Shown here in pieces: positions 29,612-30,200 of a stretch of DNA of 64,000 nt. The stretch lies in the UHGV virus genome UHGV-0133741; one strand, given 5' to 3'. Positions within the stretch are counted from its first letter, which is position 1. Every line of letters starts with the position of its first letter. A program made the translations under genes and the position numbers. Source of the DNA: a virus. Below the pieces are notes generated by a model. That model worked only from the letters and a program-made list of their open reading frames with translations, ran no database searches and was not told where the DNA came from.

Positions 29612-29872
29612 TTAGTTACCGCTGATAGCGCGGTTGTAATCATTAACGTTGCGATTCTTCCTGTTAATCCCCATCAGCATCGTTTCTGTATCAAGGATAT
29701 AGGCTGGCAGATCATCAAAATATTCACTGCTAAACTCTGGCATCCTGCACATAAACGCACTTTTGGGGGCAGGGTGATTAACCTTTGTCGGCGTCGGCGT
29801 TAAATTCGCTGATCGACTCCCGGAGCAACCGCTGAGTGTCAACAGGAATGCGCTGGCGAACACTACCCGACG
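29612..29872 (-). CDS. proline-rich outer-membrane lipoprotein (Rz1/o-spanin-like)
   Basis: Track ORF 29612-29944; lipobox LTLSGC; mature part Pro-rich (TPTPTKVNHPAPK) with a single Cys; probable TTG start near 29872; overlaps the 3' end of the upstream TM/coiled-coil ORF out of frame. Confidence 0.4.
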   Translation of the reverse strand, partial: RRVVFASAFLLTLSGCSGSRSANLTPTPTKVNHPAPKSAFMCRMPEFSSEYFDDLPAYILDTETMLMGINRKNRNVNDYNRAISGN

Positions 29873-30200
29873 CAACCAGTTGTTTCTGAACTTCAGCTTT
29901 TCGTTCCATTTGTCTGTCTGCATACTTCGCTTGTTCTGATTCATTTTTCACTTCCTGGCTGTGAAAATGTTGATCCGCTTTATTCATCGTCTCAATGGTC
30001 TGGTTAAGATCACTGATTGACTTATCGCGCTCCTTAACAGCCTGATCAAGGCTGCCAATTTTTTCCAAGGCTTGCTTTAACTGATAACGTTCCCATGCAA
30101 ACCCAGCACCAACAAGTGCGCAAATCAGGACAAGAACACCAGTAACAGCAAGTTTCTCCTTCAAAGACAAAGCTGTTTTTAACGTTGAAAAAAACGACAT
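29778..30200 (-). CDS. N-terminal TM plus coiled-coil periplasmic protein (Rz/i-spanin-like)
   Basis: 140 aa; TM LAVTGVLVLICALVGAGFAW followed by a coiled-coil domain. Confidence 0.4.
   Translation of the reverse strand: MSFFSTLKTALSLKEKLAVTGVLVLICALVGAGFAWERYQLKQALEKIGSLDQAVKERDKSISDLNQTIETMNKADQHFHSQEVKNESEQAKYADRQMERKAEVQKQLVASGSVRQRIPVDTQRLLRESISEFNADADKG

Follow-up and report, generated by a model that had tools for sequence, protein, structure and literature searches.

Our results identify the overlapping gene pair at positions 29612 to 30200 on the minus strand of the DNA analyzed here (a viral stretch of 64,000 nucleotides, referred to below as the window) as the ppfA/mlp pair of a P1-like phage-plasmid, and, judged by its sequence, the window itself is such a phage-plasmid. 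Spanins disrupt the outer membrane when the host cell lyses, and we consider it probable, with good confidence, that this pair encodes a predicted two-component spanin. Our analysis establishes the anatomy of the pair, its conservation, the selection acting on both reading frames, and its identity with P1 ppfA/mlp. The literature and curated databases already contain the pair, its assignment as a spanin, and the fact that it lies apart from the other lysis genes of P1. It is thus an ordinary pair rather than a new one, because this conserved overlapping arrangement has already been catalogued as the predicted spanins of P1.

Identity of the locus and anatomy of PpfA and Mlp

The DNA of the region is 95 to 97% identical to that of P1, P7, RCS47, and SJ46 (95.6% against the P1 record NC_005856), in whose records the genes are named ppfA/mlp, "Rz/Rz1," or "Rz-like spanin." The longer protein is 94% identical to P1 PpfA, with 8 substitutions, and the shorter is 95% identical to P1 Mlp, with 5 substitutions that all fall in the signal peptide, the mature protein being 100% identical. 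The lengths of 140 and 110 amino acids, the 167-nucleotide overlap in the +1 frame, and the ribosome-binding sites are the same as those of P1 PpfA (gp064) and Mlp (gp063), and within the pair only allelic differences from P1 are present. The operon upfC-upfB-ppfA-mlp-upfA and its position beside oriR/repA are also the same as in P1, whereas the adjoining rep/par module is not of the P1 type at the DNA level, and positions 24447 to 29070 gave no megablast match.

The gene ppfA (29778 to 30200; like all genes and gene features of the operon described below, on the minus strand) was recognized from its open reading frame, its 94% identity with P1 PpfA, and its correspondence to phrog_89 and to P1 gp064 in SpaninDB, and it encodes a predicted i-spanin of 140 amino acids. 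Its start codon is ATG, preceded by a GGAGG ribosome-binding site (30206 to 30210), the same Shine-Dalgarno sequence that SpaninDB gives for P1. An earlier note on this DNA had described a 140-amino-acid protein with an N-terminal transmembrane helix and a periplasmic coiled coil, and both features were recovered. Residues 17 to 35 (LAVTGVLVLICALVGAGFA; 30096 to 30152) form the top Kyte-Doolittle window, with a mean of 2.48. They are the sole strongly hydrophobic stretch in a protein whose remainder is highly charged, and they fall within a helix that AlphaFold predicts for residues 13 to 110. In the same model (mean pLDDT, 71), this helix is followed by a linker at residues 111 to 119, containing G112 and P119, and by a second helix at residues 120 to 139. 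The membrane-proximal part of the predicted periplasmic region, residues ~41 to 75 (29976 to 30080), is modeled as continuous helix and carries a heptad pattern of hydrophobic a/d positions of the coiled-coil type that was matched by none of 2,000 shuffles (0/2000). PpfA has a single cysteine, a nonconserved residue of the transmembrane domain.

The second gene, mlp (29612 to 29944), was assigned from its open reading frame, its identity with P1 Mlp, and its correspondence to phrog_30284 and to P1 gp063 in SpaninDB. It encodes a predicted o-spanin lipoprotein precursor of 110 amino acids, of which 71 would remain in the mature form. An AGGAAG Shine-Dalgarno sequence (29951 to 29956), embedded in ppfA codons Q82-E83-V84, lies 6 nucleotides upstream of the mlp ATG, and both elements are kept in all six lineages compared (6/6). 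The short lipoprotein gene that had been proposed to overlap the i-spanin-like gene has an intact frame with a Shine-Dalgarno sequence and an ATG. The LSGC lipobox that had been reported is also present, at residues 37 to 40 (29825 to 29836), downstream of the signal hydrophobic core VVFASAFLLTL; cleavage is predicted at LSG/C, with serine at +2 and C-S-G-S as the mature N terminus. Across all lineages, the lipobox reads LSGC, LSAC, LNAC, or LNGC. Serine at position +2 leads to sorting to the outer membrane by Lol. The Mlp signal peptide is atypically long, at 39 amino acids including a basic n-region of 26 amino acids; SpaninDB flags the signal peptide of P1 Mlp as "too long" and records its LipoP cleavage at 39/40.

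An internal start in mlp, which would give a canonical signal peptide of 16 residues, was rejected as the main start, as it is not accompanied by a credible Shine-Dalgarno sequence. TTG or ATG is found at this position in 5 of the 6 lineages and the upstream ATG with a strong Shine-Dalgarno sequence in 6 of 6; the internal codon could still be used as a minor start.

The lipoprotein had been described as having a single cysteine. The precursor in fact has two, C40 in the lipobox and C66, and the mature protein would carry one acylated and one free cysteine. Cys66 (codon at 29747 to 29749), identified from the alignment as the only free periplasmic cysteine, lies in the motif FMCxMP. The residue and the motif are invariant across the aligned lineages, and a further motif, DDLPxYILD...INRKN, is kept in all of them. 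The description of Mlp as proline-rich holds only moderately, with 6 prolines in the 71 mature residues, 5 of them within the first 30. The AlphaFold model of Mlp is of low confidence (pLDDT, 53) and gives a hint of a C-terminal helix at residues 86 to 108.

Conservation and selection in the two frames

The out-of-frame overlap noted previously at the 3' end of ppfA extends over 167 nucleotides (29778 to 29944) and comprises ppfA codons 86 to 140 plus the stop codon and mlp codons 1 to 55 plus part of codon 56. As the start of mlp is offset by 256 nucleotides from that of ppfA, mlp is in the +1 frame. Within PpfA, the third encoded by the overlap is the best conserved. Neither frame is disrupted in any of the related loci examined (81/81), and the paired arrangement is kept at PpfA identities of 58% (JK004), 59 to 61% (lineages L085 and L087), and 34% (lineage L089).

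Values of pN and pS were obtained from protein-guided codon alignments. In codons 57 to 110, where mlp is the only coding frame, pS was 0.68 to 0.89 and pN was 0.12 to 0.28. This clearly indicates that mlp is a real gene, because its singly coding part is under strong purifying selection. In mlp-frame codons 1 to 26, pN exceeded pS. The lack of constraint on these 26 codons in the mlp frame, together with the frequent omission of mlp by gene callers (it is missing from the annotation of OP279344 and truncated in that of JK004), could be taken to mean that the lipoprotein frame is a chance open reading frame and that ppfA is the sole gene. We give this interpretation practically no credence. 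The conservation data refute it, with pS far above pN in the 54 codons past the ppfA stop and with the Shine-Dalgarno sequence, the ATG, the lipobox, and the FMCxMP and DDLPxYILD...INRKN motifs kept in all lineages, and the homology of Mlp to P2 LysC described below also argues against it. The two annotations instead illustrate that an overlapped o-spanin gene is routinely missed or truncated by gene callers.

Relatives of PpfA in a word-indexed search were only P1-like proteins, with at least 57% identity. A HMMER profile search with PpfA against 1.84 billion representative proteins added only three proteins (P0101, P0107, and, marginally, P0118); the remaining matches were fragments or coiled-coil noise. 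The gene for P0101 sits in a further P1-like contig that carries the same operon, and the locus of P0107 was not found in viral, genome, or metagenome collections. A search for PpfA relatives in canonical lysis cassettes gave no informative context outside P1-like elements. Homologs of Mlp were returned from P1-like sequences only, and many of these were fragments or mis-called.

Spanin assignment and comparison with P2, lambda, and T4

In SpaninDB (Kongari 2018), P1 gp064 and gp063 are listed as an overlapped i-/o-spanin pair of the family "P1," the o-spanin being recorded as having one periplasmic cysteine and the i-spanin as having none. The predicted spanin genes ppfA and mlp of P1 have further been described as occupying an operon of their own, without linkage to the remaining lysis genes, the P1 lysis genes being scattered (Bednarek 2022). 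In our searches, PpfA matched phrog_89, "Rz-like spanin," at 1e-22, and Mlp matched phrog_30284 at 2.2e-74 (residues 1 to 110) and phrog_456 at 6e-5. Neither PpfA nor Mlp matched the Pfam lambda Rz or Rz1 families at E ≤ 0.01, and Pfam and PDB sequence searches gave nothing relevant for the pair.

We compared the pair with the criteria for two-component spanins of Summer 2007 and Kongari 2018. PpfA has the predicted topology of a type II inner-membrane protein, its one transmembrane domain being N-terminal, and its periplasmic domain is, in the AlphaFold model, largely helical or coiled coil, with helices parted by a linker. Mlp has a lipoprotein signal with a lipobox and no aspartate at +2, which predicts outer-membrane sorting. 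Its gene is in the +1 frame and extends past the ppfA stop, as in the "overlapped" class, and C66 provides at least one periplasmic cysteine that would be available for a disulfide. Homology to gp064 and gp063 is full length and places the two proteins in the P1 PpfA/Mlp family (phrog_30284; "P1" in SpaninDB). Location in or beside a lysis cassette, a usual but nonobligatory feature, is not seen here. The Rz/Rz1-like reading proposed in the earlier note is thus supported by all of the testable sequence-level criteria, by the family matches, and by the published P1 assignment.

The LysB/LysC genes of P2 (TIGR03495/NF038368) overlap as well, the lipoprotein again being encoded in the +1 frame; the overlap is 146 nucleotides in P2 and 167 nucleotides here. 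BLASTP aligned Mlp with P2 LysC at 2e-8, with 37% identity over 68 amino acids, and hhalign gave a probability of 91.6% and an E value of 8e-7. The alignment, over 65 to 68 residues, spans the signal, the lipobox, a PTP stretch, and the cysteine of C-x-MP; Cys66 in FMCxMP aligns with the cysteine in "LCPMP" of LysC. From this similarity, Mlp is probably a remote relative of the P2 o-spanin. The NCBIfam profiles were concordant but below threshold (LysB at 1.4e-3 for PpfA, with 18.9 bits against a cut-off of 92.75; LysC at 0.033 for Mlp, with 14.3 bits against a cut-off of 27), which leaves both proteins outside the P2 families as defined there, and a PpfA profile gave no significant match to P2 LysB. 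Both gene pairs are found beside tail genes in a late operon, presumably so for ppfA/mlp. The P2 genes directly follow those for the holin and endolysin, whereas ppfA/mlp do not, and Mlp further differs from LysC in its C-terminal domain and in being extended at the N terminus by a long basic segment.

In lambda, too, Rz/Rz1 combines a type II inner-membrane protein, helical in its periplasmic domain, with a small outer-membrane lipoprotein that contains proline and whose gene is in the +1 frame. Rz1 and Mlp are further alike in having a single free periplasmic cysteine (C29 in Rz1; mature position 27 in Mlp). There is no detectable sequence homology between the two systems, and they differ in several respects: the Rz1 gene is fully embedded whereas mlp is overlapped; Rz has two periplasmic cysteines and PpfA has none; mature Mlp has 71 amino acids, against 40 in Rz1, and is less proline-rich; and ppfA/mlp lie outside a lysis cassette. 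In T4, the spanin genes are unlinked to the holin and endolysin genes. The T4 i-spanin PseT.3, like PpfA, lacks a periplasmic cysteine, and the o-spanin PseT.2, like Mlp, exceeds Rz1 in size; a C-terminal helix is predicted for PseT.2 and, only with low confidence, for Mlp (residues 86 to 108). In contrast to ppfA/mlp, the PseT.3 and PseT.2 genes are separated, and PseT.2 has two periplasmic cysteines; no sequence similarity between PseT.3/PseT.2 and PpfA/Mlp was found.

The following scheme is inferred as regards membrane topology, the formation of a PpfA-Mlp complex and of a disulfide, the time at which the genes are expressed, and the fusion of membranes. A single mRNA would serve for the translation of both genes and of the tail-tip genes upfC and upfB, with mlp read in the +1 frame from the ribosome-binding site embedded in ppfA. 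The N-terminal helix of PpfA would anchor the protein in the inner membrane, and its long, partly coiled-coil helix would reach into the periplasm. Mlp would be exported, lipid modified at Cys40, and, because its +2 residue is serine, sorted to the outer membrane. It would probably dimerize via its single free cysteine, C66, and bind PpfA at its distal end, and the resulting complex would bridge the periplasm. In lytic growth, the peptidoglycan mesh would restrain this complex. After the wall has been degraded by Lyz, the P1 endolysin, whose gene lies in another part of the genome, collapse of the complexes may fuse the inner membrane with the outer one and so complete lysis.

Operon context and alternative functions

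The pair is part of the five-gene operon upfC-upfB-ppfA-mlp-upfA. The first gene, upfC (31037 to 31321), encodes a PAAR-type tail spike tip protein, with matches to phrog_281 (2.5e-30) and to Pfam PAAR_motif (1.1e-5, slightly under the curated cut-off); cryo-EM of P1 has located UpfC on the spike. The product of upfB (30240 to 31028) is the tail-tip "tripod" protein, as indicated by its translation, a match to phrog_1559 (1.5e-134), and the cryo-EM assignment in P1. The longest upfB open reading frame extends to 31085; translation probably starts at the ATG at 31028, which follows AGGAG, the phrog_1559 match begins at residue 20 of the long frame, and the JK004 ortholog begins with MLEKDYQL. 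The last gene, upfA (29208 to 29600; phrog_1453, 2.3e-61), is an open reading frame with no assigned function that begins 11 nucleotides past the mlp stop. Its ortholog in L087 has Pfam Phage_gp49_66, and in L085 it is absent while mlp is kept. A terminator-like hairpin with a T-rich tail (29179 to 29195), identified by consensus scan only, follows upfA and precedes oriR/repA.

All of the P1-like lineages examined keep the order upfC-upfB-ppfA-mlp beside repA, including the one in which PpfA identity is down to 34%, and the unit in which ppfA and mlp are predicted to be cotranscribed abuts the plasmid origin oriR and repA. The pair had been placed in a replication-proximal gene cluster; it does adjoin oriR/repA but belongs to the tail-tip operon and not to the replication genes. 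It had also been said to lie far from any recognizable holin or endolysin, and tblastn with P1 Lyz, LydA, LydB, and LydC indeed detected no homologs in the 64-kb window (all E > 0.5). The location is, as claimed, unusual for spanins, although this is a known property of P1, in which the lysis genes are scattered. It is explained by the position of the pair behind two tail-tip virion genes in an operon that merely abuts oriR/repA.

A pattern for Lpa late promoters, AAGTNACTT-N4-TANNNT, was derived from the annotated LP23 and recovers LP23 and a site at 3600 to 3618 perfectly. No such promoter was detected on the minus strand between 29200 and 31560 at ≤2 mismatches, and a sigma-70 scan gave no good match or candidate upstream of upfC. 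By eye, only a weak TAGACC-N15-TAAAAT was seen upstream of the operon. A C1-operator-like sequence at ~31396 to 31413 is part of the divergent dmt promoter. As the partners UpfC and UpfB are tail-tip proteins of the virion, expression of the operon has to occur during lytic growth.

In a published CRISPRi knockdown study, the efficiency of plating (EOP) of P1 was 1.3 for ppfA and 0.24 for mlp. Both genes were scored as nonessential, with no plaque defect, and lambda Rz was scored as essential in the same study. This raises the possibility that the pair serves a non-lysis envelope function connected with the tail-tip module or with life as a plasmid prophage, such as superinfection exclusion or modification of the envelope by an inner-membrane protein and an outer-membrane lipoprotein. 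The conserved gene order beside repA across P1-like lineages, the absence of linkage to lysis genes, the failure to detect an Lpa promoter, and the near confinement of the PpfA family to P1-like elements among 1.84 billion representative proteins are all consistent with such a role. We nevertheless consider it unlikely. Mlp is a probable homolog of P2 LysC and shares its +1 overlapped layout, PpfA matches the large Rz-like spanin PHROG at 1e-22, and no structural hallmark of a spanin is missing. Under many laboratory conditions, phages with spanin mutations are expected to form plaques, and nonessentiality does not discriminate between the readings, because upfC and upfB are themselves dispensable for plaques.

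The points that we count against a spanin are thus the absence of a plaque defect, of an adjoining holin or endolysin, and of an Lpa or sigma-70 promoter; the absence of a Pfam Rz/Rz1 match and of a profile match between PpfA and LysB; and the atypically long signal peptide and low-confidence model of Mlp. A two-component spanin acting in lysis remains our preferred reading. The knockdown results and the unusually complex, multicomponent lysis system of P1 would also be compatible with a pair that is a spanin by descent but functionally redundant or vestigial in P1-like phages, the outer membrane being disrupted otherwise. This is quite improbable in view of the strong purifying selection on both proteins across lineages, the intact frames in 81 of 81 loci, and the retention of mlp even where upfA has been lost.

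Along with the preferred assignment as a lysis spanin, we considered a proposal, very unlikely in our estimation, in which PpfA/Mlp is not primarily a lysis device and would form an envelope module that works together with UpfC and UpfB, the piercing proteins of the tail tip. Its basis is that the four genes are found together beside the plasmid origin and never beside lysis genes, have no recognizable Lpa late promoter, and are dispensable for plaque formation. In a related variant, the 26-residue basic N-terminal extension of Mlp, whose length is conserved, might regulate or delay export or lipidation rather than being a by-product of the overlap.

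Identity of the gene pair

A megablast search of phage records matched the region from 28900 to 31400 to Escherichia phages RCS47 and P1, Salmonella phage SJ46, and phage P7 with 95 to 97% identity over the full query, and the P1 genome (OP279344) is colinear with the 64-kb window from the tail fiber gene S to cre, apart from a few nonmatching blocks. This identity and colinearity indicate that the window is a P1-like phage-plasmid (Punavirus), and by sequence the gene pair corresponds to P1 ppfA and mlp. Relative to its P1 counterpart, PpfA has 8 substitutions in 140 residues and Mlp has 5 in 110, the latter all in the signal peptide. 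In the P1 reference record mlp is labeled "Rz-like spanin," and Rz/Rz1 is the name given to the pair in several P1-like records. Both open reading frames (ORFs) lie exactly where the earlier note had placed them, and its interpretation as Rz/Rz1-like spanins is supported; this assignment, a predicted function, and the location that the note had considered unusual are both already documented for phage P1.

Kongari et al. 2018 (PMC6139136), in their SpaninDB supplement, class P1 (NC_005856) as "ovl," with i-spanin gp064 (140 aa; periplasmic domain of 104 aa that lacks Cys, "one in TMD") and o-spanin gp063 (110 aa, of which 71 form the mature protein; one Cys in the periplasm; lipobox TLSG). The 39-aa signal of gp063 is flagged "Too long signal sequence," with the remark "LipoP server finds cleavage site at 39th position." The Introduction of Bednarek et al. 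(PMC9025707) names both as P1 spanin genes, in an operon unlinked to the other lysis genes, and assigns the o-spanin to ppfA and the i-spanin to mlp. By sequence these labels are reversed: the transmembrane domain is found in PpfA (i-spanin) and the lipobox in Mlp (o-spanin).

Structure and conservation of ppfA and mlp

The ppfA gene (29778 to 30200, minus strand; 140 aa) has a GGAGG ribosome-binding site upstream. The sole hydrophobic segment of PpfA spans residues 17 to 35 (LAVTGVLVLICALVGAGFA), and an AlphaFold model (shallow alignment; mean pLDDT, 71) consists of a long helix (residues 13 to 110), a Gly/Pro-containing linker (111 to 119), and a second helix (120 to 139). A heptad hydrophobic pattern at residues ~41 to 75 was matched by 0 of 2000 shuffles, and conservation of PpfA peaks within the mlp overlap. 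The mlp gene (29612 to 29944, minus strand; 110 aa, mature 71 aa), with AGGAAG 6 nt upstream of its ATG, starts 256 nt 3' of the ppfA start and is therefore in the +1 frame; the two genes overlap by 167 nt, and mlp extends 166 nt beyond the ppfA stop. Mlp has a hydrophobic core (VVFASAFLLTL), the lipobox L-S-G-C at residues 37 to 40, and the mature N terminus C-S-G-S. The earlier note had described a proline-rich lipoprotein with a single Cys. The proline content is only moderate (6 Pro in the mature 71 aa, 5 within the first 30 residues), and the single Cys holds for the free Cys of the mature protein, C66, the lipobox Cys also being present.

Both frames are intact in 81/81 loci (80 from IMG/VR plus Cronobacter phage JK004), as are the +1 frame of mlp and its lipobox. 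The overlapped pair is kept in the diverged P1-like lineages JK004 (PpfA identity, 58%), L085 from Klebsiella aerogenes (59%), L087 from Salmonella (61%), and L089 (34%). The 54 mlp codons past the ppfA stop show nearly saturated synonymous differences (pS, 0.68 to 0.89) versus few nonsynonymous ones (pN, 0.12 to 0.28), so mlp is a real protein-coding gene; a chance ORF is excluded. Such purifying selection also disfavors a redundant or vestigial spanin, which we consider very unlikely. Codons 1 to 26 vary freely in the mlp frame (pN exceeds pS in 3 of 4 comparisons), and the N-terminal extension retains its codon number (25 to 26) and basic character despite this change. As for the start codon of the lipoprotein, on which the earlier note had made its reading depend, each of the six lineages compared retains the long-form ATG and a strong Shine-Dalgarno sequence. 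An internal TTG or ATG, giving a canonical 16-residue signal peptide, was rejected as the main start, as it has no credible ribosome-binding site. The mlp gene is unannotated in OP279344.1 and cut to its last 44 codons (gene_24) in JK004 (MZ188976.1), reflecting a common tendency of gene callers to miss o-spanin genes of the overlapped type.

Relationship to P2 spanins and proposed mechanism

In a PHROG search, PpfA matched phrog_89 (1e-22) and Mlp matched phrog_30284 (2e-74) and phrog_456 (6e-5), each annotated "Rz-like spanin." The pair had no match to the lambda Rz and Rz1 families in Pfam. The NCBIfam matches, weak and far under the curated cutoffs, were concordant in pointing to the P2 pair (PpfA to LysB, 1.4e-3; Mlp to LysC, 0.033). 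Direct comparison of PpfA with P2 LysB gave no significant match. Mlp aligned with LysC by BLASTP (2e-8; 37% identity over 68 residues) across the signal, lipobox, PTP stretch, and Cys of the C-x-MP motif, and a five-lineage Mlp profile matched LysC with an hhalign probability of 91.6% (E, 8e-7), supporting remote homology of the two proteins. P2 lysB/lysC are laid out like ppfA/mlp, in the +1 frame with an overlap of 146 nt, and lie next to tail genes R and S in a late operon, much like the predicted spanin genes in the P1 tail-tip operon. Among 1.84 billion representative proteins searched with a profile, relatives of PpfA were nearly confined to P1-like elements; the full-length distant relatives were two, P0101 and P0107, the former encoded on another P1-like contig (94 kb) carrying the same operon and the latter matching no locus in the collections searched.

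The anatomy and conservation of the pair are observed features, and it is likely that the pair is a spanin acting by the proposed membrane fusion mechanism. PpfA would be anchored in the inner membrane, its helical domain projecting into the periplasm, and Mlp would be lipidated at C40 and then sorted to the outer membrane because its +2 residue is Ser. Mlp probably dimerizes by a disulfide at the invariant C66, the proposed counterpart of C29, through which lambda Rz1 forms a disulfide-linked dimer, and would bind the distal part of PpfA. Once Lyz has stripped the peptidoglycan, the PpfA-Mlp complex would fuse both membranes. Each of these elements (topology, assembly of the complex, the disulfide, timing, and the fusion itself) is modeled on the spanin paradigm.

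The tail-tip operon and other features of the window

Five closely packed genes, upfC, upfB, ppfA, mlp, and upfA, run head to tail on the minus strand. The first, upfC (31037 to 31321), encodes a PAAR-type spike tip; upfB (likely 30240 to 31028) has its ATG 8 nt past the upfC stop, ppfA begins 39 nt after upfB, and upfA (29208 to 29600) follows mlp by 11 nt. Next come a terminator-like hairpin (29179 to 29195) and then oriR and repA. The operon thus adjoins oriR/repA, but the pair itself is not among the replication genes. A 2026 cryo-EM study of P1 (PMC12810830) assigns UpfC to the tail spike and UpfB to a "tripod" with its anchor at the tail tip, and thus the predicted spanin genes belong to a virion (tail-tip) operon. 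No counterpart of the P1 endolysin and holin genes (lyz, lydA, lydB, and lydC) occurs within the 64-kb window, in agreement with the earlier note that the pair is far from such genes here; the P1 map has them upstream of the covered segment. L085 (4424 to 4977) lacks upfA between mlp and repA, with mlp intact, and the UpfA ortholog of L087 carries Pfam Phage_gp49_66.

A pattern for Lpa late promoters derived from the annotated LP23 recovered LP23 itself (24329 to 24347) and found none upstream of upfC or ppfA. A sigma-70 scan gave no good candidate for the operon, and the P1 record annotates just two predicted sigma-70 promoters here, both inside upfB. In a genome-wide CRISPRi study (Piya et al. 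2023, PMC10695390), P1 mlp (EOP, 0.24) and ppfA (EOP, 1.3) scored as nonessential on knockdown, as did upfA, upfB, and upfC; lambda Rz scored as essential. The invariable linkage to upfC/upfB, together with the missing late promoter and the lack of any effect on plaques, suggests the main rival, a nonlysis envelope role tied to the tail-tip module or prophage state, which we consider unlikely. A C1-operator-like sequence (GTTGCTCTAATAAATATT, plus strand) at ~31396 to 31413, in the divergent region between upfC and uhr, is the counterpart of the annotated P1 operator Odmt/Op68.

The partition/replication block (24447 to 29070), with parB (24503 to 25504), parA (25521 to 26717), and repA (27988 to 28908), has no megablast match to P1 OP279344, and its flanks are 95 to 98% identical; judged from these matches, the element seems to carry a par/rep (incompatibility) module different from that of P1. 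The parA-repA interval, occupied by the incA iterons in P1, here holds a 269-aa ORF (26886 to 27695, minus strand) with a T5orf172 domain (Pfam, 5e-6), which matched phrog_2876 (7e-192) and, weakly, an endonuclease PHROG. A 394-aa ORF (11953 to 13137, minus strand; phrog_7086) with no assigned function falls in a block unmatched in P1 (11851 to 14071), around the sim region. Its C-terminal SH3_3 domain weakly resembles the cell wall-binding end of phage amidases (3e-4), and no catalytic lysin domain was detected in it. A 5.4-kb block (50927 to 56315), including a PAPS reductase-like ORF (51454 to 52332; phrog_424, 3e-90), is missing from OP279344, a P1 isolate that carries deletions, and may simply be the canonical P1 region downstream of pmgT.
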